A stretch of 64,000 nt of DNA from positions 131,468 to 195,467 of the forward strand of contig CAZJBV010000002.1 of NCBI GenBank assembly GCA_964544585.1. Direction: 5' to 3'. Of the stretch, positions 7,738 through 61,120 are shown piece by piece. Position 1 is the stretch's first letter. Each line of letters starts with the position of its first letter. A program made the translations under genes and the position numbers. A model generated the notes under the pieces. It searched no databases and was not told where the DNA came from. It was given only the letters and a program-made list of their open reading frames with translations. This stretch comes from an uncultured Gammaproteobacteria bacterium (GTDB lineage Bacteria > Patescibacteriota > Microgenomatia > 2-02-FULL-39-11).

Positions 7738-7777
7738 GTTTTGACTTTTGATTTTTGAGTTTTGAATTTTTATCAAT

Positions 7778-9544
7778 ATGTGCGGAATCTTTGGTTATGT
7801 AGGCAAAAATAAAAATGCCGGAGATCTCGTCCTTGAGGGCCTTCGCATCCTCGAATATCGAGGCTATGATTCCTGGGGTATAGCCACCTTAAATAATTCT
7901 TCTATAAAAATTACCAAAAAAGCCGGTAAAATTCCCCAATCAAAAATAAAATTTAACTCCTCGCCAATTGCGCTTGGTCATACCCGCTGGGCCACACACG
8001 GAGGAGTCACAGACATAAATGCTCATCCCCATCTTGACTGTACCGGAAATCTGGCCATCATCCACAACGGCATCATCGAAAACTATGACCAATTAAAAAA
8101 AACCCTTTCCCATTCCAATCATCGATTTTCTTCCGAAACCGATACCGAAATTGCCATTCACCTCATCGAATCATATAAAAGATCTGGCCTTTCCTTTCGC
8201 GAGGCAGTTCGCAAGGCTTTCAACCAATTTGAAGGCCTAAATGCCATCATCGTCATCGACGCCGAAACCAAAACCTTTATTGCCGCCAAAACCGGTTCTC
8301 CCCTTGTTGTTGGTCGTGGAAAGGGCGAAGGAAATTATATCGCTTCCGACGCTCCAGCCCTCATCAAACACACAAATATTCTTCATTTTGTGGAAGACGG
8401 CGAAATGATTGAAATGAACTCTATCGATATTAAATGCTTCGATCAAAAAACCGGCCGTCCAAAATCTCTTAAATGGCAAACGATTCACTGGAAATTCGAA
8501 TCAATAGACAAAGGTAAATATCCACATTTCATGCTCAAAGAAATTTATGAGCAGCCAAAAGTCATAAAATCAATTTTAAACCAGGGTGAGTCGACCATAA
8601 AAGACCTAGGCAAACTAATTAAACACTCATACGGCACTTACCTCGTAGCCTGTGGTACCGCAGCCTACGCTGCTCTTGCTGGCACATACCTTTTTTCTAA
8701 AATTGCCAAGCGTCACGTCAACTACACCGTCGGCAGCGAATTTGGATACCAGCTCGATTTTTTGAAAAAAGGAAGTTTGGTTATCGCCCTTTCCCAGTCT
8801 GGTGAAACCATCGACGTTATCGACGCGGTCAAAAAAGCAAAGGAACAGGAAGCCACAATTTATGCATTAGTAAATACCCTAGGTTCTACCCTTTATCGCA
8901 TGGCAGACTACAAAAGCCTTCTTCTTGCTGGCCCTGAAAAAGCTGTTGCTTCAACCAAGGCCTTCACCGCCAAACTCACTTATCTTATCCTTTTAGCATA
9001 CGCCCTTGCCGAAAGTCACAATAAAGGAAAAAAACTGGTTGAAAAGGCTATAATAGCGACCAATTTTATTTTCCAACACGAAATTGAAAATATCAAAAAT
9101 ATTGTCAAGGATATATTTAGGAGTCAGCACATTTATGCCATCGGTAGAGGACTAGCCTATCCAATAGCCCTCGAAGCTGCTCTCAAAATAAAAGAGATTT
9201 CCTACATTCACGCCGAAGGGATGGCCAGTGGTGAATTAAAGCATGGCCCAATTGCCCTAGTAGAGGAGGGAACACCTTGTATCGCCTTTCTACCCGACGA
9301 CGAGACTTATGGAGCCAATCTAGCTGGAGCCATGGAAATGGAGGCAAGAGGCGCCAAAATTATTGGCATTTCATTCAAAAACCACGAAGTCTTTGACTAT
9401 TTTATAGAGGTGAAAGATGCTGGTCCGGCTAGTATTATTCCCGAAACCATCGCAGTCCAACTTTTAGCATATTATCTATCCATCGCCCGCGGCCTCGACC
9501 CAGACAAACCAAGAAACCTCGCCAAATCCGTCACCGTCAAATAA
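7778..9544 (+). CDS. glmS: Glutamine--fructose-6-phosphate aminotransferase
   Basis: N-terminal MCGIFGY Ntn-amidotransferase start and two SIS domains. Only 40 nt of upstream spacer, so no room for a glmS ribozyme. Confidence 0.9.
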   Translation: MCGIFGYVGKNKNAGDLVLEGLRILEYRGYDSWGIATLNNSSIKITKKAGKIPQSKIKFNSSPIALGHTRWATHGGVTDINAHPHLDCTGNLAIIHNGIIENYDQLKKTLSHSNHRFSSETDTEIAIHLIESYKRSGLSFREAVRKAFNQFEGLNAIIVIDAETKTFIAAKTGSPLVVGRGKGEGNYIASDAPALIKHTNILHFVEDGEMIEMNSIDIKCFDQKTGRPKSLKWQTIHWKFESIDKGKYPHFMLKEIYEQPKVIKSILNQGESTIKDLGKLIKHSYGTYLVACGTAAYAALAGTYLFSKIAKRHVNYTVGSEFGYQLDFLKKGSLVIALSQSGETIDVIDAVKKAKEQEATIYALVNTLGSTLYRMADYKSLLLAGPEKAVASTKAFTAKLTYLILLAYALAESHNKGKKLVEKAIIATNFIFQHEIENIKNIVKDIFRSQHIYAIGRGLAYPIALEAALKIKEISYIHAEGMASGELKHGPIALVEEGTPCIAFLPDDETYGANLAGAMEMEARGAKIIGISFKNHEVFDYFIEVKDAGPASIIPETIAVQLLAYYLSIARGLDPDKPRNLAKSVTVK

Positions 9545-9548
9545 CATC

Positions 9549-10350
9549 CACCTTAGAGGTGTCCCAGATAGGACACCTTTGGTAAATATTACGATTCCAA
9601 AGTCAAATGTTTAATTGCAGCCAATCTTTTCTGGTAGTCTTTCTGATCTAAAGTAAATTCTTTGAAATCCTCAATGCTTTTAAAATACGATAAAATATCC
9701 TGCTTATGAACCAGGGGCTTACTTTCATTATTATCATTTAAAAACAGAGGCAGTGAAGAATACGGATAATTTAAGAGATCTTCTGTAGATTTAACAATAT
9801 ATGATGTATATGGATTTAGGTGAATGTATCGTGTAACGTGCATATATTGCTCATCGGATTCTATTAATACAGCCTTAAATTTTCCTTGAAATATTGGTCC
9901 ATACGTTTCATTTTTGACATTTAAGAAACGAGTATACCCATTTGAAATATTCCCGACAAATTTTGCTATACCATTATTCTTAATTTGTTGAAGAAGTAGA
10001 TGGAAATGACTAGGCATAAGACAGAAAGCATGGATTCTCACAATATAATCTTTTTTATTTAATAAATTTAAATATATACTTTCTCTTTGATCTCTACTTA
10101 ATTTTAGAAATCTAGAATAACGTAATGGGATGCTGGAAAACTGATAATAAAATAGTAGCTCAAGAAAACGACCATAACTTCTATTATTTATAAACACTTG
10201 CTGCCCATACGTACCCCGATTAAATACGTGATATATCTGATCCGTAATGAGAGGAATATTTCTTCCAGGCATAATATAAATATAGAGTTTATTTACCAAA
10301 GGTGTCAATAGAAATACACCTTAGAGGTGTATTAGCTAGGACACCTGGCT
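9549..10350 (-). mobile_element. IS200/IS605-like or REP-associated (RAYT-like) element: a Y1 HUH transposase gene between two subterminal hairpins
   Basis: Direct repeat caccttagaggtgt lies on both sides (9549-9562 and 10317-10330). Each repeat is followed by a hairpin: aggtgtcc-cagata-ggacacct at 9556-9577 and aggtgt-attagcta-ggacacct at 10325-10346. Transposase CDS 9589-10308 lies between. Confidence 0.6.
9589..10308 (-). CDS. Y1 (HUH) transposase, IS200-like / REP-associated tyrosine transposase-like
   Basis: YHVFNRGTYGQQ N-terminal motif and the HuH motif PSHFHLLL. Flanked by hairpins. Confidence 0.6.
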   Translation of the reverse strand: MTPLVNKLYIYIMPGRNIPLITDQIYHVFNRGTYGQQVFINNRSYGRFLELLFYYQFSSIPLRYSRFLKLSRDQRESIYLNLLNKKDYIVRIHAFCLMPSHFHLLLQQIKNNGIAKFVGNISNGYTRFLNVKNETYGPIFQGKFKAVLIESDEQYMHVTRYIHLNPYTSYIVKSTEDLLNYPYSSLPLFLNDNNESKPLVHKQDILSYFKSIEDFKEFTLDQKDYQKRLAAIKHLTLES

Positions 10351-19065: not shown

Positions 19066-19066
19066 A

Positions 19067-19103
19067 ACACCTCGAAGGTGGCCGAATGGACTCCTTCGAG
19101 GTG
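19067..19103. repeat. Short-form GC-rich palindromic element between ftsW and murG
   Basis: acacctcgaagg-tggccgaatggact-ccttcgaggtg: an 11-bp perfect stem around the same tggccgaatggact loop that appears at 58541-58579. Confidence 0.7.
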
Positions 19104-19115
19104 AAAGAACCAATT

Positions 19116-23884: not shown

Positions 23885-26719
23885 ATGAGTTTTAAGCCAG
23901 TTTCGCCGCAGGTAAATTTTCCCGCACTTGAGGAAGAAATCCTCAAATATTGGAAAGAAAATAAAATATTTGAAAAATCTGTAGAAAGTCGTCCTGAAGA
24001 TAAAATTTGGACATTTCTGGATGGTCCTCCTTTTATTACAGGCACACCCCATTACGGCTCACTTTTATCAAGTATCCCCAAGGACGTTTTCCCCAGATTC
24101 TGGACCATGAAAGGCTACAGAGTCCGCCGCGTCTGGGGCTGGGACTGTCACGGTCTTCCGGCCGAAAACAAAGTCGAGACATCATTGGGGCTAAAATCAA
24201 AAAGAGAAATAGAAGAGAAAGTCGGCGTCAAAAAGTTCATCGAAGAATGTAAACGCTATGTCTCGACCACATCATCGGAATGGGATTGGTATATAGATCA
24301 CATTGGCCGTTGGGTCGATTTTAAAAATGCCTATAAAACCATGGATCTGCCTTATATGGAAACAGTCATGTGGGTTTTTAAGCAAATATATGACAAGGGA
24401 TATATCTATAAAGGTCTGCGGGTCTCTCTTTACTGTCCCCACTGCGCCACACCGATCTCCAATTTTGAAGTAGCAATGGACGCTGACAACTATAAAGAAA
24501 TAACAGAACCGGCAAACGTTTATAAATATAAATTAAAAAATGAGCAAAATACGTTTATTCTTGCTTGGTCAACAACACCATGGAATAAAATTGTGACCCC
24601 AGCTCTCGCTGTCAACCCCAAGCTAACCTATGTAAAAGTGAAACAGGGGAAAGAATATTATATTTTAGCTAAAGATACACAACGCATGTTGAAAGACGAA
24701 CCGTATAAAATTCTTCAAGAATTTCCCGGTGCATCATTAGTTGGGAAAAAATTCGAGCGGCATTTTGACTTTTATGAAATTGAGAAAGGAAAAAAGGGCG
24801 AAGTAATTATTCCTGGTGACTTTGTAACAGCAGAGGAAGGAACAGGAGTAGTGACAATTGCCGCATATGGAGAAGAAGATTTAGCAGTATCGCTGAAAGA
24901 AAATATACAAATTGTTCTTCAATTGGATGAAGAAGGATATTTGAAAGATTTTGTTCCGAAATGGGGAGGGATGTATTATCTAAAAGCCGATAAATACGTG
25001 AACGAAGATTTAGCAGGAAGAGGACTAATGTATCGTGAAGATCCTTACACACATACTGTACCCACATGTTGGCGTTGTCATACAAGACTTATCTATGCAC
25101 CTCAAGACGCCTGGTACGTCGACATTCAAAAACTTAAGCCCCTCCTTTTTAAAACAAATAAAAAAATAAATTGGTTTCCCAAACACTTTAAATACGGCCG
25201 ATTTCAAAAAAGCATGGAATTTGCTCCCGACTGGAACATATCAAGAAGTAGGTATTGGGGTTCTCCCGTTCCCGTCTGGGAATGTAGTCCGCCATCTGGT
25301 GGATGTGGTGAACGCTTTGTTCCCGGCTCAATTAAAGAGTTAGAAGAAGCCGCAGGCCAAAAAATAAACGACCTCCATAAGCCAGAAATAGACGATATCA
25401 AAATCACCTGCCAAAAATGTGGCAAAAAGGTTAGTAGAGTCCCGGAGGTTTTGGATAGTTGGATTGAGGCAGGGTCCGCCTCGTTTGCCGAGCGTCATTT
25501 TCCCTTTGAAAAAAAAATCAAACTCGAAGACTTTTTTCCTCCGGATTTTATCGCCGAATATACAGGCCAAATCCGCGCCTGGTTTTATGTCCTCCATGTA
25601 ATCGGCGCAGCCCTTTATAGATCTCCTGCATTCAAAAATGTCCTCGTCGAAGGAGTGATCCTTGGTACCGATGGCAGAAAAATGAGTAAAAATTATGGAA
25701 ATTACCCAGATCCTAGGCAACTTCTGCAAGAATACGGCGGCGACGCCTTAAGGCTTTATCTTCTTGGTTCACCCGTCATGAAAGGAGAAGACATCAGGAT
25801 TTCCGAAGAAGACTATCGCAATCAACTCCGCGGCCTGATGCTCATCCTCTGGAATGTCTATAACTTTTTTATAACCTATGCCAACGTCGATAAATGGAAA
25901 CCTCCTGCTCACTACAAACTACAAACTACAAACTACAAACTAGCCATACTCGATCGCTGGATTCTATCGCGACTACAAAAACTGATAGAAAATTTGACTC
26001 AAAAGTATGAAAATTTCAATACTATAGATGCTGTTACCAACTTGGATTTATTCATTCAGGAGCTCTCTACTTGGTATATCAGACGAAGTCGAGATAGAGT
26101 CGGTCCAACTGTTGGAAACCAAAGCGATAAAAATGCATTTTATTCAACATCATATTATATTCTGACGACGCTTTGTCAGCTCGCCGCACCCCTCATTCCT
26201 TTCCTTACCGATTCAATGTATAGAAACCTGACAGACAGTGAATCAGTCCACCTCAGCTCTTTTCCGGCTATCGATAAAAAATATATTTATCAAAAACTTG
26301 AAGAAGAAATGACTCTTGCCCTAAAAATTGTCGAAAAAGCGCACGCTCAAAGAAAAGAAGCAAAAATAAAAGTCCGCCAACCATTATTATCTTTATTTAC
26401 TGTCACAGCAGAACCTTTATCAAATGAGGTTTTACAAATTATTTCCAAAGAAATAAATGTCAAAGAGATAAAAAATAAAAAGGGAGAAACACTATCAGTT
26501 AGACTGGATAAAACAATTACCCCAGAGTTAAAAAAAGAGGGTGAAGCCAGAGAACTAGTAAGACAAATTCAATTAAGACGAAAAGAAATAGGATGCAAAA
26601 TCGACCAAAAGGTAATAGTCACCCTTCCTTCATGGCCAAAGGAGTTTGAAGAATATATTAAAAATGAAGTTCTGGCACAAAAACTAGAAAAAGGTAATCA
26701 ACTTGAGGTTAAATTTTGA
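23885..26719 (+). CDS. ileS: Isoleucine--tRNA ligase
   Basis: Class I HIGH-type motif region PPFITGTPHYGS, GWDCHGLP and KMSKN. Editing domain present. Contains a tandem heptanucleotide repeat at 25911-25938. Confidence 0.8.
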   Translation: MSFKPVSPQVNFPALEEEILKYWKENKIFEKSVESRPEDKIWTFLDGPPFITGTPHYGSLLSSIPKDVFPRFWTMKGYRVRRVWGWDCHGLPAENKVETSLGLKSKREIEEKVGVKKFIEECKRYVSTTSSEWDWYIDHIGRWVDFKNAYKTMDLPYMETVMWVFKQIYDKGYIYKGLRVSLYCPHCATPISNFEVAMDADNYKEITEPANVYKYKLKNEQNTFILAWSTTPWNKIVTPALAVNPKLTYVKVKQGKEYYILAKDTQRMLKDEPYKILQEFPGASLVGKKFERHFDFYEIEKGKKGEVIIPGDFVTAEEGTGVVTIAAYGEEDLAVSLKENIQIVLQLDEEGYLKDFVPKWGGMYYLKADKYVNEDLAGRGLMYREDPYTHTVPTCWRCHTRLIYAPQDAWYVDIQKLKPLLFKTNKKINWFPKHFKYGRFQKSMEFAPDWNISRSRYWGSPVPVWECSPPSGGCGERFVPGSIKELEEAAGQKINDLHKPEIDDIKITCQKCGKKVSRVPEVLDSWIEAGSASFAERHFPFEKKIKLEDFFPPDFIAEYTGQIRAWFYVLHVIGAALYRSPAFKNVLVEGVILGTDGRKMSKNYGNYPDPRQLLQEYGGDALRLYLLGSPVMKGEDIRISEEDYRNQLRGLMLILWNVYNFFITYANVDKWKPPAHYKLQTTNYKLAILDRWILSRLQKLIENLTQKYENFNTIDAVTNLDLFIQELSTWYIRRSRDRVGPTVGNQSDKNAFYSTSYYILTTLCQLAAPLIPFLTDSMYRNLTDSESVHLSSFPAIDKKYIYQKLEEEMTLALKIVEKAHAQRKEAKIKVRQPLLSLFTVTAEPLSNEVLQIISKEINVKEIKNKKGETLSVRLDKTITPELKKEGEARELVRQIQLRRKEIGCKIDQKVIVTLPSWPKEFEEYIKNEVLAQKLEKGNQLEVKF

Positions 26720-29290: not shown

Positions 29291-29854
29291 CTAATTCTCC
29301 GAAGAATAACTAATCGTAGCCAGTTTACCTAAACGCTGTGGAGGCCAATAGCGGAAAAATGCCCTCCCTACAATTTTCGCCTCGTCTACAGGTCCAAATT
29401 CTCTAGAATCAGAAGAATGAAAGCGATTGTCACCGAGGACAAAATAGTGACCCTCGGCAACCGTAATATCCAATCCTTCACTCATAAAGCCATTTCCTAA
29501 GATTGTCGTTTTATCAGGTTCATAAGCCTCTGCTAATTTTTGTCCATTGACGTATACTACACCAGCTTCTATTCTCACCGTTTCGCCAGGCAAAGCTATA
29601 ACTCTTTTAATGTAGTCAATATCTGGATTTTCCGGTGACTCAAACACTATTACATCTCCACGATTAGGTGTATTAAATTTATATGATATTTTATCTGTCA
29701 ATATATACTCGCCACTATGAAAATTTGGCAGCATCGAATCTCCCTTGACTTCATGTGGCTGCATCAGGAAAAGATAAATAACCACAAATATCGATGCACC
29801 GACGACAATCGTCTCTAAAAAATCCAAAAAAAATGTCCCTATCTTTTTCAGCAT
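29291..29854 (-). CDS. lepB: Signal peptidase I
   Basis: GDSMLPNF (catalytic-Ser box), a catalytic-Lys box and the GDNRFHSSDSR box. The ORF-track start at 29899 lies inside a palindromic element, so the internal ATG at 29854 is preferred. Confidence 0.8.
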   Translation of the reverse strand: MLKKIGTFFLDFLETIVVGASIFVVIYLFLMQPHEVKGDSMLPNFHSGEYILTDKISYKFNTPNRGDVIVFESPENPDIDYIKRVIALPGETVRIEAGVVYVNGQKLAEAYEPDKTTILGNGFMSEGLDITVAEGHYFVLGDNRFHSSDSREFGPVDEAKIVGRAFFRYWPPQRLGKLATISYSSEN

Positions 29855-29862
29855 ACTTAAAC

Positions 29863-29914
29863 CACCTCGGATGGTGGCAGTCCGCCATCTAGCGGACATG
29901 ACTCCTCCGAGGTG
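29863..29914. repeat. GC-rich palindromic element at the lepB 5' end
   Basis: cacctcggatggtgg ... ctcctccgaggtg arms (9-bp stem) with a nested ccgcc..gcgg palindrome in the loop. Confidence 0.65.
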
Positions 29915-29986
29915 AAGGAATCAGAACTATGGTAGATCTATAATTTAAGTGTAGTGGTATAATAAAAAACTGTCAAGGAAAAAATA

Positions 29987-30435: not shown

Positions 30436-30477
30436 GACACCTCCGAGGTGTGCGAATGCACTCCTCGGATGGTGGAG
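30436..30477. repeat. GC-rich palindromic element just past the stop of the convergent secreted-protein gene
   Basis: gacacctccgaggtg-tgcgaatgca-ctcctcggatggtgg. Same arms as the large elements, with a short loop. Confidence 0.7.
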
Positions 30478-30480
30478 GCT

Positions 30481-32724
30481 TTATATTCTTACCAAGGGAT
30501 TAACCGATGCTTTCTTTGGATTATAATTTACTATTAATTTTAATACTTTATTAACCTGCAGAGTAAATTTATATTCTTTCCAAGCTTCGCTTTTTCCTAA
30601 TTGATTATAACTAATTATATAATCTCCATCCTCACTAGGTGTAAATTCTAGACTGAATTTTCCAGATTTATCAGAATAATAGGTAATAATTCCTGAAGAA
30701 TCGGTCTCCAGCACCTCTCTTTTCAATGTTTTCAGAATAAATTTTCCAGGTTTGTTGCTAGTAATGCTAAATAGAGACTGAGTAGTTAGCTCGGGAAGTC
30801 TTTTTTCGTCAGCAACGGAAACTCCCTCAAGTCCCAAAAAATTTAAAATTTCTTGTATACTTTGAGTATTTTGTACCAACTGAATGTGATTGAGATTAAA
30901 AGTAAAACTGTTTGCGTCCTCTAGTTGGCTGCTCGATGTCAATACTGTTCCATCTCCTAAATCCGAATTTATTTTCTTTGTAGGTTTACCATCAACCCAA
31001 TTTCCCAACAGATTATCCATCGCGCTTGGCTTTTTTACCTCCAAATACTCTAAAGTTTTTTTCTCTATTCCAGAAATTGTCAAAACCGAAATATCATAAA
31101 AAGGCAATGAGAATTGATTATCTCGCAGCCAGGGATTTTCTCCTTCAATAAGATCGTCTTCCATTAATTGTCCATTCCACTTTATAAAATTAAATGTCGG
31201 CAGAATATCACGTATAGACGGTGATAGTGACTGTATCACCTGCCGCTTAGTTTCAAATGGATTTCCTAATCTAGTCCGGCAAAAATTAATTAGAGTATTT
31301 ACTGCTATCTTGTCGACTAAATTACTAGACCATATCTCACCATTTTCCCACAGAGGGTAGGCAAGTACCGTCCCCTGATGTGGAGTGCCCATCGTCACCA
31401 ACTTATCCACATTGTGATCTTCACCATTTTGCAGGATATAACTTCTGGCTACCAAACCACCCAAACTATGAGATACAATATCCACTTTTCCATTTGGTTG
31501 GATATTATCAATGAACTCCTTCAATTTTTGCCCGGCCGTCTCCATCGTCTGCCGCCAGTCGTATGCATAAACATAGAATTCCTCATTGAGTACCAATCCA
31601 GCATTTTGGCTCAAAGTTTGAATAATTCTATCGTAAATATCCGTATATGGAGCCATTATCCATGTATTACTTTGTGAAAGATTACAAGAAAGCAAGTCAT
31701 TTCTATTCCAACTCGCCCCCAGCCCGGGTATGAAAATGACTTTATTAGGTTTCGGCGTAGGTGTTGGCGGCAGTGGCGTAATCGGCACCCCCTCCGTCTC
31801 CTTCTCCGCATATCCGATTTGAAACTTTCCGGAAACACTGTTAAGCATACCAGTATACCAAGTTTTATCCATTCCACTCTCTCGCATTACAGTGTTACTA
31901 GCAACTCTATGATTATCAAAATCCTGATTTTGACCCTTATCAAGTACCGGATTCTCTGGATCACGGAACCAATTAATTCCATCATTAGACCAAGCGTGTC
32001 CAATTCCAGCTTCTCCCGTATACCACAATTCATAAATCCCACCATCGTAAATTGCCATAGGGCTTGTAGCTCCATTTTCCCATGAATAATTAGGATCATA
32101 AGCTAATACAGGATCTGCATTTTTATCCCAATTTATTCCATCAGTAGATGTTGCAAATCCAGTTTGCCAAATACTTCCCGAACCTCCTACAAACCACATA
32201 TAATAAGTATTCCCAAGCTTGATTACAGAGGGCGCACCAACTCCTTTATTATTCCAGTTAGCGTAAGGAACAATTACAGAGCTCGGATAAATATTCCAGC
32301 TAGTCCCATCCGACGATGTTGCATATTTTATTTCAAAACTCTGCCCATTATTAATTCGAATGTTATACCACATCTTGTACACCGAACCATCTTTTATCAC
32401 AGTTGGTTGTTCTGCATTGTTACCAAAAGAGAGTGGGTTATTAATATATTTTGTCCAAGTAATTCCATTAGATGATTCTGCATATCCTATGTACGAATTT
32501 GTCCAAGCAGAGGAATCTGTTCCTGTATACCATATTTTGTAAGTATCTCCATCTTTTATCACTGTTGGATCAGCGGCATGGTAGCTATCCCAACCAGAAG
32601 GAGAATTTGAAATTACTGGATTACTGCTCGATTTTGTCCAAGTTGCTAGGGTGTTTGAGGGAGTAAGTAAGGAAAAAGTCGAGATTAGTGCCAAGAAAAC
32701 TAAGGGCAAGATTAGTTTTCGCAT
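30481..32724 (-). CDS. Secreted two-part protein: N-terminal beta-propeller repeats (GH43/GH32/GH130-like) plus a C-terminal lipase-like alpha/beta hydrolase
   Basis: Signal peptide MRKLILPLVFLALISTFSLL. About six repeats of the form P(T/S)VIKDG-TYKMWYTG. Lipase nucleophile elbow VSHSLGGLVARSY. Confidence 0.5.
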   Translation of the reverse strand: MRKLILPLVFLALISTFSLLTPSNTLATWTKSSSNPVISNSPSGWDSYHAADPTVIKDGDTYKIWYTGTDSSAWTNSYIGYAESSNGITWTKYINNPLSFGNNAEQPTVIKDGSVYKMWYNIRINNGQSFEIKYATSSDGTSWNIYPSSVIVPYANWNNKGVGAPSVIKLGNTYYMWFVGGSGSIWQTGFATSTDGINWDKNADPVLAYDPNYSWENGATSPMAIYDGGIYELWYTGEAGIGHAWSNDGINWFRDPENPVLDKGQNQDFDNHRVASNTVMRESGMDKTWYTGMLNSVSGKFQIGYAEKETEGVPITPLPPTPTPKPNKVIFIPGLGASWNRNDLLSCNLSQSNTWIMAPYTDIYDRIIQTLSQNAGLVLNEEFYVYAYDWRQTMETAGQKLKEFIDNIQPNGKVDIVSHSLGGLVARSYILQNGEDHNVDKLVTMGTPHQGTVLAYPLWENGEIWSSNLVDKIAVNTLINFCRTRLGNPFETKRQVIQSLSPSIRDILPTFNFIKWNGQLMEDDLIEGENPWLRDNQFSLPFYDISVLTISGIEKKTLEYLEVKKPSAMDNLLGNWVDGKPTKKINSDLGDGTVLTSSSQLEDANSFTFNLNHIQLVQNTQSIQEILNFLGLEGVSVADEKRLPELTTQSLFSITSNKPGKFILKTLKREVLETDSSGIITYYSDKSGKFSLEFTPSEDGDYIISYNQLGKSEAWKEYKFTLQVNKVLKLIVNYNPKKASVNPLVRI

Positions 32725-32801: not shown

Positions 32802-33674
32802 ATGCCCGAATGCAATGTATGTAAATCTACAAATATCATTGAATGGAAGAAAATCGATAAATACAAACTCCTCAAATGTAACCAATGTTTAATAATACAA
32901 ACTTTTCCTCAACTATCAGAGTCTGAACTTGAATATATTAATAATAGGTTTTACGGCAGACAACCCTTTACAAGTGTTGCTTATAACACGTCTGCAGAAT
33001 TTTTTTTTAAAAGAGGAATAAAATTTTATGAAGAAATAAAACTATTAAAAATTAAAGGTAAAAAACTATTAGATATTGGTTCTGGCTACGGATATAATCA
33101 ACTAGTCGCAAGAAATAACGGTTTAATTACCATCGGAATAGATCTCTCAAAAAATGCCGTTGAATTTGCAAGAAATATTTTTAATTTGAATGTAATCCAG
33201 GAGTCTTTCTATGCGTACAATTTTAAGAATTCGAAATTTAGTATCATCACAATGTATGATTCATTGGAGCATGTACGAAATCCAAAAGAAACAATTAAGA
33301 AGGTTAATAAACTTTTATCTGACGATGGTTATCTTATACTTCAGACGCCTAATATTGACAGTATAATGTATCTTCTAACTAAATCGAAATGGGTATGGTT
33401 ACTACTACCTTTTCATTTTTATCATTTCACGTCTGCTTCTATATCAAAAATACTTTCTGAATCAGGGTTTAGGATTGTAAAAATATATACATCGGATGAT
33501 AGGCAGGAATTTATCAAAAATATCTTATGGATAATTAAAATTAGAGAAGATGGAAAACTTAGATTTTTTTATAAACCTCTCTATATTTTTTTACATTTAC
33601 CATATTTTCTAAATTGGATTTGGAATCTATTTAATAAAGGAGGGCTACTTCATATTTATGCCCAGAAGATCTAA
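32802..33674 (+). CDS. Class I SAM-dependent methyltransferase with an N-terminal zinc-ribbon
   Basis: CNVCKS...CNQC at the N-terminus and SAM motif I LLDIGSGYGYN. Confidence 0.65.
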   Translation: MPECNVCKSTNIIEWKKIDKYKLLKCNQCLIIQTFPQLSESELEYINNRFYGRQPFTSVAYNTSAEFFFKRGIKFYEEIKLLKIKGKKLLDIGSGYGYNQLVARNNGLITIGIDLSKNAVEFARNIFNLNVIQESFYAYNFKNSKFSIITMYDSLEHVRNPKETIKKVNKLLSDDGYLILQTPNIDSIMYLLTKSKWVWLLLPFHFYHFTSASISKILSESGFRIVKIYTSDDRQEFIKNILWIIKIREDGKLRFFYKPLYIFLHLPYFLNWIWNLFNKGGLLHIYAQKI

Positions 33675-34500
33675 GATTACCGCCATTATTCTTACCCTCA
33701 ACGAAGAAAAAAATATTGCAGACTGTTTGAAGTCGGTGAAGTGGGTTGATGAGATTGTGGTAGTAGACTCGGGCAGTACAGACAAAACCATCGAGATAGC
33801 AAAAGAATATACAGATAAAATTTATTATCACAAATTTGAAAGCGATTTTTCAAAACAGAGAAATTTTGCCATCACCAAAGCAAAAGGGGAGTGGATACTA
33901 TTCTTAGACGCCGACGAGACTTTGCCAAAAGGCTCGGAAGAGAAAATAAAAGAACTCATTGCCAATACACCTTCCAGGAGTCCCTGCCTGCCGGCAGGCA
34001 GGCATTCCGGCCATCTGGAAGGTGAAACGATCGAAGGCTTTTGGTTTCCTCGTCGAAACTACATCAATAAAGCTAGGTACTTAAAACATGGATTATTTTA
34101 TCCTGATTGGCAATTAAGATTGTTAAGATACACAAAAGGCTTGCAATTTATTGGTAGCATCCACGAGCAGCCGGATATTTCTCATGATAAAACACAAAAA
34201 GTGAAAGATGTAGAAATATTCCACAACTCCTCTCGGACAAAATATGATTCCTTTTTTTCATTTTACCGCCTTTTTCCATTTATTAAAGCCGACGGGCAAA
34301 AATTAGCATCTTCATCTACTTCAACTACCCAGATTTTCTTATCTTCTTTTTCTACTTTTTTTCTGGAACTCTGGTGGAATCTGGTAAGAAGACAAGGACA
34401 TAAAGATGGATGGCCTGGAATTAGAGGTACTTTAATTTGGGCCTTGTACAAGGAACTTTCCGTGATTTACGCCCTCGTATCTCGTATAATAAAGAGGTGA
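33658..34500 (+). CDS. Family 2 glycosyltransferase carrying a palindromic-element insertion
   Basis: ITAIILTLNEEKNI...VVVDSGSTDKT GT2 N-terminus and the DADE motif. Element at 33968-34024 encodes PSRSPCLPAGRHSGHLEGE in frame. Confidence 0.75.
   Translation: MPRRSKITAIILTLNEEKNIADCLKSVKWVDEIVVVDSGSTDKTIEIAKEYTDKIYYHKFESDFSKQRNFAITKAKGEWILFLDADETLPKGSEEKIKELIANTPSRSPCLPAGRHSGHLEGETIEGFWFPRRNYINKARYLKHGLFYPDWQLRLLRYTKGLQFIGSIHEQPDISHDKTQKVKDVEIFHNSSRTKYDSFFSFYRLFPFIKADGQKLASSSTSTTQIFLSSFSTFFLELWWNLVRRQGHKDGWPGIRGTLIWALYKELSVIYALVSRIIKR
33968..34024. repeat. GC-rich palindromic element (variant arms) inside the GT2 gene
   Basis: acaccttccagg-agtc-cctgcctgccggcaggcagg-cattccggccat-ctggaaggtg. 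10-bp outer stem plus the cctgccggcagg core. Confidence 0.7.
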
Positions 34501-35630: not shown

Positions 35631-36763
35631 CCCTGATTCGCGGACGCTACTTGAATGCATATGAAATGCAAACCTACGAAGAACTTGTGGCATTATATCA
35701 AATCACAGCATTTGGATCACTTACTGCTTTCCATAAAAACTTCATCTTCCCAGTAAAATTACTCCCAAGTCCCATCGATATCATCTCCCTGACTCACAAA
35801 ATAGGCATACCAGACAAATACATCCACGGAATTTTAAATAGATTATTGGTCGATGATCATTATCTTTTTGGCCTCATCGACCAACTCAAAGGATTTGATA
35901 TCGCTCATACTGCCGAAACATATTTTCACTTTACTCACCAATGCCTGAGTGCCAAGAAAAAAGGATATGTAAAAAAGGTAGTAGCCACAGTCTGGGAAAA
36001 TATTCCTTTTAATAACGAAGGCGTAAAAGGCAGAAAAGAGTTCAAATCTCAGGCACAAAAAGAAATAGACCACTTTATAGCCGTTTCCCTCAAAGCAAAG
36101 AAAGCTCTAGTCCAAGAAGGATGTGATGAGAAAAAAATTTCAGTAATACCAGTTGGAATTGACACACACCGCTTCCATCCCAGAAACAAAAATTCAAATA
36201 AAAAATTATGCATTTTATTCTCCGGCAGACTTGAAAGTGAAAAAGGGGTATTTGATGTAATTGATGCTATCGACCACCTTGCCAATCGATATCATTGGAT
36301 CCCAGATAGACTCGAGGCAATATTAGCTGGAAAAGGATCAGAGGAAAAACGTCTAAAAGACATGATTTTAAAAAGAAACATTTCCGACTTTTTTAACATT
36401 AGCCATTATCCTTATAGCCAAATGCCTTCTATATATCAGATAGCGGATATCTTTATCGCGCCAAGCCACAAAACTAAATATTGGCAGGAACAATTTGGGA
36501 TGGTATTTCTAGAGGCAATGGCATCGGGTCTACCTATAATTACTACAGATACAGGAAGTATCAAAGAGGTGACGGGAGATGCCGCAATTTATGTACCAGT
36601 TGGGAGGATAGAAGTGCTTTCTGATATACTTCAATCATTGCTCATAAATAGTCAAAAACGACTCGATTTAGGAAAAAAAGCAAGGGTAAGAGCATTGAAA
36701 TATTTTAATAGAAACTTAATCGCCGGTAAAATAGATAAACTTTATCAACAAGTAAATAAATGA
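35618..36763 (+). CDS. Family 1 (GT4-type) glycosyltransferase
   Basis: EQFGMVFLEAMASGLPIITTDTGS. Confidence 0.75.
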   Translation: MPKIALIRGRYLNAYEMQTYEELVALYQITAFGSLTAFHKNFIFPVKLLPSPIDIISLTHKIGIPDKYIHGILNRLLVDDHYLFGLIDQLKGFDIAHTAETYFHFTHQCLSAKKKGYVKKVVATVWENIPFNNEGVKGRKEFKSQAQKEIDHFIAVSLKAKKALVQEGCDEKKISVIPVGIDTHRFHPRNKNSNKKLCILFSGRLESEKGVFDVIDAIDHLANRYHWIPDRLEAILAGKGSEEKRLKDMILKRNISDFFNISHYPYSQMPSIYQIADIFIAPSHKTKYWQEQFGMVFLEAMASGLPIITTDTGSIKEVTGDAAIYVPVGRIEVLSDILQSLLINSQKRLDLGKKARVRALKYFNRNLIAGKIDKLYQQVNK

Positions 36764-37695
36764 ATAAAATATTTATTATCATACCCACTTATAACGGCTT
36801 GAAAGACACATTTGAATGTCTCAAAACAATTTCTAAACTAAATTATAATAACCAAGAAATAAAAACAGTTATTGTCGATAACGCCTCAACTGACAAAACT
36901 CCTGAATTCCTGGAGAAAGAAAAATCAAAATATAATCTCCGCAAAATCTTCAAAAACAATAAAAATCTCGGCTTTGCCAAAGCCTGCAATATAGGCATAA
37001 AGTATGCCTTAGAAAATAATGCAGACTACATCCTCCTCTTAAATAGCGACGTGGTAATAGATCAAAACTTCCTTCCATCTCTGATAGATTCTGATTTAGA
37101 CATCATCAGCCCCGTAGTACAATTTCCCCTCGATCCTGATGGAAAAGATTATCGCTACGATTATGGTGGATACGTCAATTGGTGGACAGGCCGCACATAT
37201 CACGACGACAGAAAAGTTTTTTCCAAAAGACATCGAGGCACCTCGGACGTAAAGACACCTCCGAGGTGGCCCGCCCGCCTGCCGGCAGGCAGGGAAGGGA
37301 CTCCTCGGACGGTGGAGGGAGCAGGAAAACCGGAATATATTCCCGTTGACTATATGTCCGGCTGCAGTTTACTCATCAAAGCAGAAGTTTTTAGAAAAAT
37401 CGGCCTTTTTGATGAAAAATTTTTTATGTATTTCGAAGACGTCGACTTCTGCGTCAGGGCCAAAAAGGCCGGTTTTAGAGTCGCGGTGGATCCGCAATCC
37501 CTCATATTCCACAAGCTCGGCGGATCGATCAAACGCTGGTCAACAAAGGCAATTTACTATAATATCTCCAGTAATGCCATTTTTATCCTCAAATACTGCG
37601 GCATAAAAACCCCAATTGCTCTGGGATATCTTTCACTTCTCACCGCCAAAATTATAATGGATAAGATTTTATATAAACTAGACGCTAGACGCTGA
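36760..37695 (+). CDS. Family 2 glycosyltransferase carrying a large palindromic-element insertion
   Basis: IIIPTYNGLKDTFECL...VIVDNASTD and the DxD motif. Element at 37238-37318 encodes [27 protein letters not shown] in frame. Confidence 0.75.
   Translation: MNKIFIIIPTYNGLKDTFECLKTISKLNYNNQEIKTVIVDNASTDKTPEFLEKEKSKYNLRKIFKNNKNLGFAKACNIGIKYALENNADYILLLNSDVVIDQNFLPSLIDSDLDIISPVVQFPLDPDGKDYRYDYGGYVNWWTGRTYHDDRKVFSKRHRGTSDVKTPPRWPARLPAGREGTPRTVEGAGKPEYIPVDYMSGCSLLIKAEVFRKIGLFDEKFFMYFEDVDFCVRAKKAGFRVAVDPQSLIFHKLGGSIKRWSTKAIYYNISSNAIFILKYCGIKTPIALGYLSLLTAKIIMDKILYKLDARR
37238..37318. repeat. GC-rich palindromic element, long form
   Basis: cacctcggacg-taaa-gacacctccgaggtgg-cccgcccg-cctgccggcagg-cagggaaggga-ctcctcggacggtgg. 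Confidence 0.85.
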
Positions 37696-49644: not shown

Positions 49645-51009
49645 ATGAATCAAATCCTCATTCTTCTCGGCAAAATCATTTCTGCCCTCAGTAAAATTAC
49701 CAACCTTGGTAGTGGTAGCACCTGGCCGGGTGAAATAGCGTTAATAACAAATCCAAATATTTTGGCTCATTTTTTTAACAAAGTAAAAAAAGGAATCATT
49801 ATAATCGCCGGCACAAATGGTAAAACCACTACCGCAAAAATGGTTCAAGAAATGATAAGCTCACAGTATCCCATAGACACTATAGTTCACAACGATTCAG
49901 GTGCCAACCTCTTAAACGGCATAACTTCAGCCTTTATAAAAAAGGCCAAAATTATTACGAACAGTTATTTTGACTGGGCAGTCTTGGAAGTCGACGAAAA
50001 TACTCTTCCCATTTTACTTAAATATCACCTCAGCCATAAAGACACCTCGGATGGTGTGCGCATAAAGACACCTCCGAGGTGGCCCGCCCGCCTGCCGGCA
50101 GGCAGGGAAGGGACTCCTCGGATGGTGGAGAAACCAGCAAAGCCCAAAATTGTCATTGCCCTTTTAAATCTTTTTCGCGACCAGCTCGATAGATATGGAG
50201 AGGTAGATACCATTGTCTCAAAATGGTTGTCTGCCCTCAAAAATTATTTGGGAAAAGTCAATCTCATTACCAATGCCGATGATCCCACCATTGCCTACAT
50301 GGGTCTTTCTTGTCAAAAGAATGTCACTTTTTTTGGTATAGACAAGGCAAAAGGCATAAAAGAAATAGAGCATGCTACAGACTCCATCTTTTGCCCGCTA
50401 TGTGGACATAAATTAAGTTATGAGGCCGTCTATTATTCTCATATAGGTAGATGGGCTTGTCCATCATGCAACCTTAATCGTCCTAAAATCCAAACCGCAA
50501 GTATAAAAACCAAATTACCAGGTCTATACAATTTTTATAATACACAATGCGCCGTATTAATTGCTCAAACAATCGGAATAAAAGAATCTAATATAAAGTC
50601 AGCTCTCCAAAATTTTACCCCCGCCTTTGGCCGCCAAGAGGAATTCAGCATCAATGGTAAAAAAATTAAAATCTTCCTCTCCAAAAACCCAGTCGGCTTC
50701 AATGAATCTCTAAAAACTGTCATCGATCTCGGCGCCAGGCAAGTGCTTCTCGTTTTAAACGATAGGATACCCGACGGCCGCGACGTCTCCTGGATTTGGG
50801 ACGTAGACTTTGAAATAATTCCTGAAAACACCCAAATCATAGCTTCAGGAGAAAGATGCTATGACCTTGCCCTCCGCCTCAAATACGCAGGCAAAAAATT
50901 TGAAATAGAAAAAGACTTGAGAAAATCCATCCAGTCAGATTATATTTTGCCTACCTATTCGGCCATGCTCGAAGTTCGAAAAATTTTGACGGGCAAAAAA
51001 ATTCTTTAA
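49645..51009 (+). CDS. murT: Mur-ligase-like lipid II isoglutaminyl synthase subunit MurT, carrying a palindromic-element insertion
   Basis: Mur ligase P-loop IIAGTNGKTTTA, Cys4 ribbon CPLCGH…CPSCN, and a DUF1727-like C-terminus. Element at 50041-50129 encodes [31 protein letters not shown] in frame. Confidence 0.65.
   Translation: MNQILILLGKIISALSKITNLGSGSTWPGEIALITNPNILAHFFNKVKKGIIIIAGTNGKTTTAKMVQEMISSQYPIDTIVHNDSGANLLNGITSAFIKKAKIITNSYFDWAVLEVDENTLPILLKYHLSHKDTSDGVRIKTPPRWPARLPAGREGTPRMVEKPAKPKIVIALLNLFRDQLDRYGEVDTIVSKWLSALKNYLGKVNLITNADDPTIAYMGLSCQKNVTFFGIDKAKGIKEIEHATDSIFCPLCGHKLSYEAVYYSHIGRWACPSCNLNRPKIQTASIKTKLPGLYNFYNTQCAVLIAQTIGIKESNIKSALQNFTPAFGRQEEFSINGKKIKIFLSKNPVGFNESLKTVIDLGARQVLLVLNDRIPDGRDVSWIWDVDFEIIPENTQIIASGERCYDLALRLKYAGKKFEIEKDLRKSIQSDYILPTYSAMLEVRKILTGKKIL
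50041..50129. repeat. GC-rich palindromic element, long form
   Basis: gacacctcggatggtg-tgcgcataaa-gacacctccgaggtgg-cccgcccg-cctgccggcagg-cagggaaggga-ctcctcggatggtgg. Confidence 0.85.
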
Positions 51010-51026
51010 CTACCAAACTACAAACT

Positions 51027-51854
51027 ATGAACTACAAACTAACTATCGGCTGGCTCTATCCTGATTACATGTCGACCTATGGAGATCGTGGTAATATTAT
51101 TTGTCTGACCAAACGATGCCAATGGAGAAAAATTAATGTCGAAATTAAGAAAATAGAATTTGAAACACTCCCACAAGAAATCGATTCTTGCGATTTGATT
51201 ATCGGCGGCGGAGCCCAAGATAGGCAACAGGAATTGGTGGCAAAAGATCTTTTAAAGAAAAAAAATATTTTTAGAATATTATTTAATAGGGGAGTGCCAG
51301 GTCTTTTTGTCTGCGGCTCTCCCCAACTTCTTGGTCACTATTACATGACAGGGGATGGGAAAAAATTGGCAGGCCTAGGAATTTTCGACTATGTTACCAA
51401 GCATTTCGGACATGACAAACCCCGCTGCATCGGCAACACAGTCGCAAAAGTCATCGGCATAAACACCTCGGATGGAAAGACACCTCCGAGGTGGCCCGCC
51501 CGCCTGCCGGCGAGGCAGGAAGGGACTCCTCGGATGGTGGAAGGATCACAAACCATCGTCGGTTTTGAAAATCATGGTGGTAGAACATATTTAGGCTCCA
51601 GCGCAAATCCCTTTGCCAAAGTTTTAGCTGGCTATGGCAATAATGGGGAAGATGGATACGAAGGCGCAATCTACAAAAATGTCATCGCCTGCTACTACCA
51701 CGGCCCCTTTCTTCCCAAAAATCCCCATATTGCAGATTGGCTTCTTACCCGCGCACTTGAAGTCAAATACAAAAAAGTTATACAATTGGGACCTCTCGAT
51801 GATGGACTTGAATGGCAAGCGCATGATTTTATATTAAATAGGGTCAGACCTTAA
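51027..51854 (+). CDS. gatD: CobB/CobQ-type glutamine amidotransferase GatD (lipid II isoglutaminyl synthase glutaminase subunit), carrying a palindromic-element insertion
   Basis: LYPDYMSTYGDRGNI N-terminus characteristic of GatD. Catalytic Cys in FVCGSPQLLGHY. Sits directly downstream of murT. Element at 51463-51542 encodes [27 protein letters not shown]. Confidence 0.65.
   Translation: MNYKLTIGWLYPDYMSTYGDRGNIICLTKRCQWRKINVEIKKIEFETLPQEIDSCDLIIGGGAQDRQQELVAKDLLKKKNIFRILFNRGVPGLFVCGSPQLLGHYYMTGDGKKLAGLGIFDYVTKHFGHDKPRCIGNTVAKVIGINTSDGKTPPRWPARLPARQEGTPRMVEGSQTIVGFENHGGRTYLGSSANPFAKVLAGYGNNGEDGYEGAIYKNVIACYYHGPFLPKNPHIADWLLTRALEVKYKKVIQLGPLDDGLEWQAHDFILNRVRP
51463..51542. repeat. GC-rich palindromic element, long form (core variant cctgccggcgaggcagg)
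   Basis: aacacctcggatgg-aaa-gacacctccgaggtgg-cccgcccg-cctgccggcgaggcagg-aagggactcctcggatggtgg. Confidence 0.85.
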
Positions 51855-57357: not shown

Positions 57358-58883
57358 ACAATTACGAACCAATAATTGGTCTTGAAATTCACGTCGAACT
57401 AAAGACCAAATCAAAAATGTTCTGTGGTTGCAGGGCCGATTGGTTTGGTTTGCCCCCAAATTCCAATACTTGCCCTGTTTGTCTAGGTCTACCTGGTGCA
57501 CTTCCGGTTCCCAACAAAAAAGCAGTCGAATGGTGTATCATGCTCGGCCTTGCCCTAAATTGCCAAATCCCCGAAACATCTAAATTTAATCGAAAAAATT
57601 ATTTTTACCCCGATCTTCCCAAAGGTTATCAGATATCACAATACGATCAACCCCTTGCGATAAATGGATGGTTGGAAATAAATAAGCCACAAGACACCTC
57701 GGATGGTGGCGAAGCAACGACTTCGACTCCTCCGAAGGTGCGAAGGGACCGGAAAAGAATAGGCATCACCCGCGTCCACATGGAGGAAGATACAGGCAAA
57801 CTTCTCCATGCCAAAGTCGAGGGTTCAAACGTTTCCTTAGTCGATTTTAATAGAAGCGGCGTCCCTCTCGTCGAAATAGTTACAGAACCTGACATAAGAA
57901 GTAGTGAGGAAGCTCGAACTTTTCTTAAAAAACTCCACCAAATAATTCGCTACTTGGGTATTTCCGACGCCGATATGGAAAAAGGCTCCATGCGCCTCGA
58001 GCCAAATATCTCTCTCCGAAAAAGAACAGGCGACAAAGACACCTCGGACGGTGTCCGCCAGCCGGCGGACTCCTCCGAGGTAAAGACACCTCCGAGGTGG
58101 CCCGCCCGCCTGCCGGCAGGCAGGGAAGGGACTCCTCGGATGGTGGAGGAAGCATTACCAAACTATAAAGTCGAAGTCAAAAATATCAACTCATTTAATT
58201 TTGTTAAAAAAGCAATCGATTTTGAATTAGAGCGCCATACGGATATTTTAGAAAGGGGTGAGTTGCCTATACAAGAAACTCGCGGCTGGGACGAAAAAAA
58301 AGGCATAACATATTCTCAAAGATCAAAAGAAGAAGCCCACGACTACCGCTATTTTCCCGAACCAGATATTCCTCCAATGAGATGGGGAAAAGAGCAAATA
58401 TCAAAAATCAAAGATCAAAAACCCGAACTTCCCGATGCTAAAATAAAAAGATTTATCAAAGATTATAAGTTGTCAGAATACGACGCAACAATTTTGACAG
58501 ACGAAAAATCAACCGCTGACTATTTCGAAAAAGCCTTAAAGACACCTCGGGGGTGGCCGAATGGACTCCCCCGAGGTGGAGAGACCGGAATAAACCCCAA
58601 AACCATCGCCAATTGGATTATAAACAAACGGATTGATACATCAAGGATTTCGCCAGAAGAACTCATCAAATTGATAACAAGTAAAACACAAACTATTCAA
58701 ATAGATGAAAAAGAATTGGAATCAATCATCAAAAGAGTCCTCTCTCAAAACCCCAAAGCCGTCTCCGACTACAAAGCCGGAAAACAACAAGCTATAATGT
58801 TTCTAGTCGGCCAAGTAATGCGAGAAACCAAAGGAAAAACTGATGCGAAAAAGATAAAAACAAAGCTAAAAAATATGATATAA
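57354..58883 (+). CDS. gatB: Asp/Glu-tRNA(Asn/Gln) amidotransferase subunit B, interrupted in frame by three palindromic elements
   Basis: N-terminus [23 protein letters not shown] and the C-terminal YqeY/GatB tail. Insertions at 57693-57740, 58038-58148 and 58541-58579 are all in frame. Confidence 0.85.
57693..57740. repeat. GC-rich palindromic element (short arm-only form with a nested cgaag..cttcg hairpin)
   Basis: gacacctcggatggtgg-cgaagcaacgacttcg-actcctccgaaggtg. Confidence 0.7.
58038..58148. repeat. Composite GC-rich palindromic element: an arm-only unit followed by a full long-form unit
   Basis: gacacctcggacggtg-tccgccagccggcgga-ctcctccgaggt-aaa-gacacctccgaggtgg-cccgcccg-cctgccggcagg-cagggaaggga-ctcctcggatggtgg. 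Confidence 0.85.
58541..58579. repeat. Short-form GC-rich palindromic element; same loop as the 19067 copy but with a co-varied stem
   Basis: gacacctcggggg-tggccgaatggact-cccccgaggtgg. The stem cgaagg/ccttcg in the 19067 copy is cggggg/cccccg here. Confidence 0.75.
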
Positions 58884-59522: not shown

Positions 59523-59669
59523 TTACCCAAAGCCATCTCCGACTACAAAGCCGGCAAAGTTAAAGTTATAATGTTTCTAGTCGGTCAGGTAATGAAAGAA
59601 CTCAAAGGGAAAGGAAACGCAGGAGCGATTAAAGAGAAATTATTAAATTACTTATCAAAATATGGATAG
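59523..59669 (+). pseudogene. Orphan duplicate of the gatB 3' end (no start codon)
   Basis: Encodes [32 protein letters not shown]…* . About 85% nt identity with gatB 58752-58836 ([29 protein letters not shown]). Confidence 0.7.
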
Positions 59670-60360: not shown

Positions 60361-60388
60361 ATATGAACAAAGCATCGTAATTCATTTT

Positions 60389-61117: not shown

Positions 61118-61120
61118 GCT

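Follow-up and report, generated by a model that had tools for sequence, protein, structure and literature searches.

What kind of unit is a transposase-like gene that lies between two copies of the same hairpin, and is its product connected with the similar hairpins dispersed around it? This question is raised by a minus-strand gene at 9589..10272 in a stretch of 64,000 nucleotides (nt) of contig CAZJBV010000002.1, from a Patescibacteriota (Microgenomatia) genome; the whole stretch is referred to here as the window. A preliminary description of this DNA had proposed an architecture of the IS200/IS605 and repetitive extragenic palindromic (REP)-associated type for the gene, together with a REPIN-RAYT-type relationship to the dispersed elements (RAYT, REP-associated tyrosine transposase). 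We propose, with a probability of roughly 0.7, that the locus is a REPtron/TIRtron-type unit: a low-copy and essentially immobile gene for a class-2 TnpAY1 (RAYT-like) HUH nuclease-ligase acting on single-strand DNA, placed between two direct copies of its cognate palindromic module of 55-60 nt.

The HUH gene and its product

The open reading frame (ORF) is real and ends with a TAA stop at 9589-9591. Translation likely starts at ATG 10272, giving a protein of 227 amino acids (aa), because all 25 aligned homologues start with MPGR at this position and TTG 10308 falls within the -35 box of the promoter. The length of 239 aa in the preliminary description counts from that TTG and has to be shortened, while the motifs YHVFNRG (on β-1) and PSHFHLLL named there are present, in addition to RYIHLNP. 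In the homologue alignment, residues Y14, H15, N18, H89, H91 and Y149, which include the catalytic ones, are invariant. The consensus motifs of the family are PNHFH (PSHFH in the window protein), FQGKF, RYIHLNP and YSSLP, at a length of 224-227 aa.

When searched against Y1_Tnp and RAYT profiles, the window protein matches Pfam Y1_Tnp (PF01797) with 29.5 bits, above the cut-off of 23, and NCBIfam REP_Tyr_transpos (NF047646) with an E value of 2e-13 and 50.4 bits, under the equivalog cut-off of 80. Among solved structures, E. coli TnpAREP and ISDra2 TnpA are nearest in sequence, and the match is weak for either. An AlphaFold model, built with a 26-sequence alignment as input, has a predicted local distance difference test (pLDDT) score of 87, and structure comparison of this model places the predicted fold far nearer to TnpAREP than to IS608 or ISDra2 TnpA. 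An HUH motif, a single catalytic tyrosine and a TnpA-like fold are all present, and the assignment of the window protein as an HUH/Y1 enzyme of the IS200/RAYT superfamily is supported. By comparison of its motifs with Table 1 of Quentin et al. 2018 (PMC6006769), and not by a joint phylogeny, the protein appears to fit class 2, subclass 2.1 of TnpAY1, the TIRYT group, and neither the IS200 type nor the classical GTAG-REP RAYTs. A profile search recovers 1,040 clusters (50% identity) of this family at E≤1e-30 and 13,014 at E≤1e-10, the named members being Gottesman-, Woese-, Shapiro-, Davies-, Levybacteria and other Patescibacteria.

Two palindromic modules flank the gene

Two same-strand copies of CACCTTAGAGGTGT, each followed by a stem-loop, had been noted before and are found: the window has exactly two plus-strand copies, at 9549 and 10317, with the stem-loops AGGTGTCC/GGACACCT at 9557-9578 and AGGTGT/ACACCT at 10325-10346, respectively. 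The repeat exceeds 14 nt, as shown by 43-nt direct repeats of 79% identity at 9536-9578 and 10304-10346. A perfect 17-bp inverted repeat, GACACCTTTGGTAAATA, surrounds the ORF at 9572-9588 and 10290-10306; since the module itself is palindromic, this inverted repeat is formed by the inner arms of the two direct-repeat modules. The unit shared by the flanks and the dispersed elements is the heptamer GACACCT, which occurs 15 times in the window against ~8 expected, with 4 copies in the gene flanks, 9 in dispersed elements and only 2 elsewhere. Each module is an array of GACACCT half-sites at 3-nt and ~10-nt spacings, for which nested or alternative hairpins are possible.

The upstream module is located at 10290..10346 on the minus strand, as delineated by sequence, single-stranded DNA (ssDNA) fold and pair covariation. 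Read on the gene strand, it consists of AGGTGTC (half-site h′), 10 nt, the palindrome P with the sequence AATACACCTCTAAGGTGTATT (10313-10333), a further 10 nt and GACACCTTTGGTAAATA (10290-10306), which comprises a third half-site, h, and the inverted-repeat arm. The palindrome can be written as AATACACCT-CTA-AGGTGTATT, and the 10 nt next to it end in TTGA; after this spacer come CACCTTTGGTAAATA, TATATT, 6 nt and the ATG. An upstream stretch of 68 nt folds into a single nested ssDNA hairpin (-14.1 kcal/mol, z -5.5). The promoter of the HUH gene lies inside this module, with its -35 box overlapping one half-site. It is sigma-70-like (10279..10308, minus strand), with TTGACA at 10308-10303, an 18-nt spacer and TATATT at 10284-10279, and scores 11/12 in a promoter scan. 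The ATG sits 7 nt past the -10 box, and because only this short distance separates the two, the mRNA is probably leaderless.

The downstream module (9530..9588, minus strand) is delineated by the 43-nt direct repeat, a terminator-like signal and sequence. It starts directly after the stop codon with the arm TATTTACCAAAGGTGTC (9572-9588), followed by 10 nt and the palindrome P, CACCTCTAAGGTG (9549-9561). This palindrome, CACCT-CTA-AGGTG, is followed by a T-rich tail and gives the terminator-like signal at 9561-9549 on the minus strand, and the degenerate distal part of the module overlaps the last codons and the stop (9542-9544) of the convergent glmS gene. Same-strand subterminal hairpins of the IS200/IS605 kind are thus present, with CACCTCTAAGGTG on the gene strand in either flank. 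Of the architecture proposed in the preliminary description, the bracketing of the gene by cognate hairpins on the same strand stands, but by its motifs the unit is neither an IS200-type insertion sequence (IS) nor a classical GTAG-REP RAYT. An Rfam scan of the window returned four tRNAs only, none of them at the flanks or the dispersed elements.

Cognate hairpins are conserved across the family

The flanks were compared in 80 homologous loci from species-representative genomes, which include 81 genes with both flanks; the genomes are partial, and the counts refer to loci or contigs rather than to whole genomes. In 66/81 genes, an exact stretch of 12 nt or longer is common to the upstream and downstream 100 nt of the same gene, compared to 7/599 non-cognate flank pairs in each orientation (Fisher test ~1e-62, on an assumed combined 14/599). 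The shared stretch holds a perfect hairpin in 52/81 genes. These hairpins are lineage-specific, for example CACCTCTAAGGTG, CACCCTTGGGGTG, CGATCCGGGATCG, AAGGTCCGACCTT and TTAACACTTAGTGTTAA, while the two flanks of any one gene have the same hairpin. Proximal inverted matches (≥9 nt) are found in 38/81 genes versus 16/800 controls.

In most close homologues the palindrome begins 55-58 nt ahead of the ATG, and TTGACA is nearly invariant across 28 aligned upstream regions. In the same regions the P hairpin is 87.8% paired, with 7/8 pairs changed on both sides (slid controls 37-52%), and the 3′ arm (h′) is 96.4% paired with the third half-site, with double changes in 4/5 pairs; such covariation is blind to the difference between ssDNA hairpins and half-sites bound in duplex DNA. 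One locus, L034, has CGATC in place of CACCT at all three positions. Bracketing by a cognate hairpin is conserved and co-varies with the gene across the whole family, a conclusion supported by the flank comparisons as well as by the paired changes.

It should be mentioned that the layout of the flanks varies. The flank palindromes are in inverted arrangement in some homologues (L016, L017, L019, L033), and the gene flanks of L059 and L062 contain back-to-back inverted doublets of the palindrome of that lineage. In several genomes, two divergent HUH paralogues are located 1-9 kb apart, each with its own palindrome; examples are at 10924-11652 in L028, 3479-4117 in L037, 16339-16968 in L026, 3137-3781 in L046 and 9969-10577 in L052.

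Dispersed hairpin elements in the window

About a dozen dispersed elements are present in the window, at ~1 per 5 kb, each a pair of CACCT-N3-AGGTG palindromes inverted with respect to each other and folding as a long ssDNA hairpin (z -3.8 to -7.5). The features of REPIN-type elements, namely two inverted palindromic units, a long hairpin and several near-identical copies in one genome, are all found in them. The short form has a 10-nt spacer (e.g. at 19066, 30436 and 58541), and the long form contains an inner GCCTGCCGGCAGGC palindrome (at 37254, 50067, 51479 and 58085), the four copies being 87-100% identical. Inspection of the sequence around the four long copies revealed no target duplication.

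The short-form element at 19066..19104 (plus strand), with its palindromes 10 nt apart, has a fold of -15.8 kcal/mol and a z of -7.5. The plus-strand element at 29858..29915 is at the 5′ end of the minus-strand ORF 29291-29899, and the short-form element at 30436..30478 (plus strand) is just 3′ of the minus-strand ORF 30481-32724. Other elements lie in frame within ORFs. The element at 33963..34030, with GGAGTCC at 33977, is the only inverted copy (minus strand, in the plus ORF 33658-34500). On the plus strand, a long form with inner GCCTGCCGGCAGGC is found at 37230..37318 (ORF 36760-37695; fold -23 kcal/mol), a short and a long unit at 50038..50131 (ORF 49645-51009) and a long form at 51455..51542 (ORF 51027-51854). 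The gatB gene (57354-58883) has in-frame, plus-strand elements at three hot spots: one element at 57691..57740, two adjacent elements at 58035..58149 and a short form at 58538..58582 (fold z -6.2). The sequence AGACACCTC has 9 copies on the plus strand of the window and 0 on the minus strand, and the element orientation is 11:1 (P 0.006). Since two plus-strand copies adjoin minus-strand genes, replication polarity accounts for this bias no less well than transcription does.

The in-frame elements encode peptides in conserved genes, namely gatB and the ORFs 33658-34500, 36760-37695, 49645-51009 and 51027-51854. The long-element consensus (37251-37317) is free of stop codons in all six frames, so that it could survive within genes in either orientation. 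When aligned to a solved GatB (3al0_B), the element peptides are insertions at three loops. Gottesmanbacteria relatives of GatB, of 438-558 aa, have differing inserts at the same three hot spots, two relatives are without any, and in P0122 the long element is read in another frame. The GC-rich palindrome GCCTGCCGGCAGGC is both nested in the loops of long elements and solitary. Its sites are 33977-34004, 37268-37295, 46448-46475, 50081-50108, 51493-51520, 58099-58126 and 63628-63655, with solitary examples in frame in ORF 46383-48170 and in a cluster at 63613-63673. This pattern suggests a nested insertion of a second small element.

A composite of ~140 nt, with a CACCT doublet core between AAATTGGACT and AGTCCAATTT, is seen at many lake metagenome loci, 96-100% identical and often at contig ends (L100, L104, L107, L119, L120, L122, L123, L128, L131, L132, L140, L149 and others). 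Its location differs between contigs, of which 10 or more from metagenomes contain it, and this indicates that the elements are mobile, and it is a multi-copy derivative resembling miniature inverted-repeat transposable elements.

Relationship between the gene modules and the dispersed elements

The modules and the elements have in common a 5-bp stem, the GACACCT heptamer (13/15 window copies) and spacings of 3 nt and 10 nt. When up to 3 mismatches are allowed, CACCTTAGAGGTGT has 18 matches in the whole window, against 2.8 expected from shuffles. The terminal 14-mer differs at three positions from the dispersed arm CACCTCCGAGGTGG, as the preliminary description had counted, and is closer on the other strand (9548-9561), with only 2 differences. 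Away from the gene flanks, 20 palindromes have the stem of their own locus, versus 2.2 expected from the stems of other loci, an excess of ~9-fold (Poisson 3e-13), and solo modules are found in L005, L006, L009, L023 and L025. A likeness between flank modules and dispersed elements in excess of chance is supported by these sequence comparisons, and the dispersed elements are likely substrates of the window enzyme or of a paralogue with the same specificity. A metagenome scan for the 5′ arm of the element found 54 loci with variable loop inserts; 2/54 carry an HUH homologue, both with CACCT-stem palindromes, too few for a co-occurrence test. Solo modules were also considered as portable promoters, and this idea was dropped as most have no consistent downstream ORF.

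An alternative, which we regard as unlikely, is that the flank palindromes are cis-regulatory only, serving as operator and bidirectional terminator of a domesticated gene, with the elements being moved by another paralogue or mechanism and the likeness due to ancestry or to convergence on stable CACCT hairpins. The fixed distance of the palindrome from a conserved -35 box and the terminator-like downstream copy between convergent genes are what such a role would give; however, separate operator and terminator roles would not require the palindrome to be kept on both sides and to change in step from locus to locus. It is also noted that characterised HUH/Y1 enzymes recognise ssDNA hairpins (PMC3479197, PMC6006769).

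Several observations weigh against the proposed connection between enzyme and elements and are in line with a purely regulatory role. Beyond the two flanks, the 64-kb window does not contain the exact flank palindrome with its CTA loop, and the dispersed arms have CCG, CGA or CGG loops and conserved tails, AAAGA and GGGACTCC, that are absent from the gene flanks. No other exact copy of the cognate palindrome is found within 10-20 kb in 43/52 loci (9/52 have extras), so that for most family members no repeat population can be seen. An orthologue and the same palindrome, without dispersed doublets, are present in four related loci (L003, L005, L006 and L008; ~59 kb in all), by a pattern count that is a lower bound, as the strict pattern missed the long form. 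The locus L014 holds the long element of the window beside a homologue with a CACCC-stem palindrome. As for the flank structure itself, the alignment used for covariation (A3) omitted homologues with another flank layout and took its structure from the window, and both choices favour that structure. Against these points stand the dispersal of solo modules and cognate-stem palindromes over background and the 7-nt half-site that the dispersed elements have at the same two spacings. The REPIN-RAYT-type relationship of the preliminary description is therefore retained in part: the half-site and its spacings are shared above chance, but a one-to-one link is not seen, considering the CTA-loop palindrome single to the flanks, the four loci above and L014.

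A fixed and low-copy gene

The HUH gene behaves as a fixed, low-copy gene. No second copy is present in the 64-kb window, and in 10 pairs of paralogues that share a genome or locus, identity is 36-67% and each paralogue has its own palindrome; IS200 has a mean of 4.8 copies per genome at 99% identity (PMC6006769). In each of 24 contigs, which come from several samples and assemblies, the Woesebacteria homologue P0105 has the same neighbours on its two sides, a sortase gene and PNPOx/trmD. In the window population, every contig reaching the site has the HUH gene, and no empty site was found among contigs encoding exactly the TauE and GlmS of the window, all of which carry the gene or end inside the repeat. 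Searches of plasmids gave only 11 distant matches among 72,556, and of phages 1. This low-copy, fixed-locus profile agrees with class-2 TnpAY1 genes rather than with IS200.

Independent assemblies of the window population break exactly at the inverted repeat (position 1 of L087, window 10293; the end of L089, window 9544), and short-read assemblers evidently handle the module as a repeat. L087 was considered as an empty site and ruled out, since this contig merely begins at window position 10293. When ten window proteins were compared with the 80 loci by tblastn, neither glmS nor tauE was found beside other homologues, a result that is uninformative at 30-56% protein identity. The neighbours of the gene differ among distant genomes, implying that the unit has moved over long times.

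That the 0.8-kb unit is an autonomous IS200/IS605-family IS, with tnpA alone and same-strand end hairpins and still transposing whole, is highly improbable: a Y1 HUH protein with same-polarity hairpins at both ends, as in IS200/IS608, neighbours that vary between genomes and assemblies that break at the repeat would all suit it, but the tyrosine motif is Y---NP (class 2) and not Y---Q (class 1), the protein has 227 aa with a conserved tail instead of ~150 aa, the fold is much nearer to TnpAREP, no near-identical copies are seen (36-67% identity among paralogues compared to ~99% for IS200; PMC6006769 Table 1), P0105 stays at one locus, no empty site was found, and the gene has glmS and a TauE-family gene as neighbours and no tnpB partner.

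Proposed mode of action

IS608 TnpA, ISDra2 TnpA and TnpAREP recognize hairpins on ssDNA and act through a 5′-phosphotyrosine intermediate. By analogy with these enzymes, the product of the proposed REPtron/TIRtron-type unit would bind GACACCT hairpins on ssDNA, such as the lagging-strand template, and would cut and rejoin the DNA beside them. Such cutting and rejoining could maintain, and occasionally copy, hairpin-bounded segments. Binding at the half-site overlapping the -35 box would probably repress the transcript of the enzyme itself, and the downstream module may terminate both convergent transcripts, from glmS and from the HUH gene. The small non-autonomous hairpin doublets could then be copied to other sites of the genome by way of the ssDNA exposed at replication forks.

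A more far-reaching reading, which we put forward tentatively and consider possible but doubtful, is that Patescibacteria (Microgenomates) have an active RAYT/REPIN-like system, in which subclass-2.1 enzymes would copy GACACCT doublets via ssDNA and control their own promoter. The doublets would settle mainly in genes, because they are open in all six frames, and would time and again remodel surface loops of essential proteins, GatB for instance, in genomes of very small size.

Significance

The gene itself is ordinary, belonging to a known class of domesticated IS200-like tyrosine nucleases, and the bracketing arrangement is already known. The departure from the literature is a large subclass-2.1-like family in Patescibacteria with private, co-varying palindromes on both flanks, which offers many natural enzyme-substrate pairs for the study of DNA recognition by these enzymes. 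The dispersed elements of this reduced genome lie in frame within essential genes. If the enzyme moves them, the shaping of protein sequences by a nuclease that the host has kept would become tractable here, and the long-standing question of RAYT-like protein function could be tested in a new lineage. A literature search of incomplete coverage brought up no publication about Patescibacteria that deals with RAYTs or intragenic palindromic elements; one matching preprint mentions only K07491 in an archaeon.

Other repeats and base composition of the window

Repeats of other types are present in the window. An 87-nt repeat of 84% identity at 58752-58838 and 59526-59612, ~770 nt downstream, encodes a C-terminal (YqeY-like) segment of GatB and suggests a second, stand-alone copy of this domain. 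A 43-nt direct repeat of 91% identity, starting with TATGTCTGATTTTGTTCA, is found at 60388-60430 and 61120-61162 and may mark two adjacent paralogous genes. Short tandem CAAACTA runs occur at 25901-25947 and 51014-51046, and inverted copies of an AT-rich TTTTGA-type repeat at 7739-7771 and 58388-58420. A related GatB, P0148, bears the insert KIQNSKFKIQNDNVKFK, which could derive from the TTTTGA-type repeat, so that other repeat types may enter the same GatB loops. The GC skew is negative over the whole 64 kb, though most genes are on the plus strand, and the AT skew is mostly positive.

Comparison with known systems

We have compared the unit and the dispersed elements with the characterized systems that resemble them. 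With IS200, IS608 and ISDra2 (subclass 1.1), the window unit shares the HUH/Y1 core and same-polarity hairpins near both ends of a ~0.8-kb unit, and target duplication is likewise not evident for the related small elements. However, subclass 1.1 is characterized by Y---Q in a core-only protein of ~150 aa, compared to RYIHLNP, 227 aa and a C-terminal tail here, and by near-identical copies (~99%), often with tnpB, compared to one copy in 64 kb.

Classical RAYTs are defined by an N-terminal Thr and by NP(L/V)(R/K)xG after the catalytic Tyr (Nunvar 2010, PMC2817692). The window protein is without this Thr and reads NPYTSY at the second motif. Genes of the classical group also lie between two REPs with a GT[AG]G head that are inverted relative to each other; the window palindromes have no such head, and in the window clade the CTA loops of the two flanks agree in polarity. 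A high-copy extragenic population as in classical REPs is not seen, within the 64-kb window and partial loci. E. coli TnpAREP (RAYT, YafM; PDB 4ER8; subclass 2.2) has the Y---NP motif in common with the window protein, and its REPtron is likewise a single-copy gene flanked by cognate palindromes, resembling bacterial interspersed mosaic elements, with gene and palindrome co-evolving. The two proteins differ in that sequence identity is 15-16% and the equivalog score is 50.4 against a cut-off of 80.

The dispersed elements resemble REPINs, intragenic REPs and Rickettsia palindromic elements as inverted palindromic doublets that form long hairpins, have several near-identical copies in one genome and keep open frames in conserved proteins; intragenic REPs have been reported (PMC3733652, PMC6006769). 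Unlike these, the window copies are mostly intragenic and not extragenic, are without GTAG or CGTC tags, have a long form that is stop-free in six frames and occur in a Patescibacteria host.

TIRYT, with its TIRtron (Di Nocera et al. 2013, PMC3733652), is equivalent to TnpAY1 subclass 2.1 (Quentin et al. 2018, PMC6006769) and to RAYT group 1 of Bertels. Subclass 2.1 is the second largest TnpAY1 branch and was reported without REP-like flanking hairpins (PMC6006769), unlike the Patescibacteria family, in which a perfect hairpin is common to both flanks in 52/81 genes. The reported terminal inverted repeat (TIR) consensus GGGGWSAS is absent in the window, the repeat here being built from GACACCT half-sites, and in the window the promoter is inside the module. 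In other respects the window unit agrees with this group. The reported signature consists of NH[YF]H, FQ (or W[EQ]), Y[IV]HLNP and an SS tail, at a median of 238 aa and a mean of 1.9 copies with 49% identity within a genome (PMC6006769). In the window family, NH[YF]H and Y[IV]HLNP are found, FQ replaces W[EQ] and the conserved C-terminal tail has an SS motif; the window protein has 227 aa, and the paralogues are likewise few and divergent (36-67% against the mean of 49%). As in TIRYT, some genomes have repeat families of moderate size and others have none. Bracketing by terminal inverted repeats, partly self-complementary and in many TIRtrons with the GGGGWSAS motif, may be a further common point, the window gene having its perfect 17-bp repeat and 38/81 family genes their proximal inverted matches.

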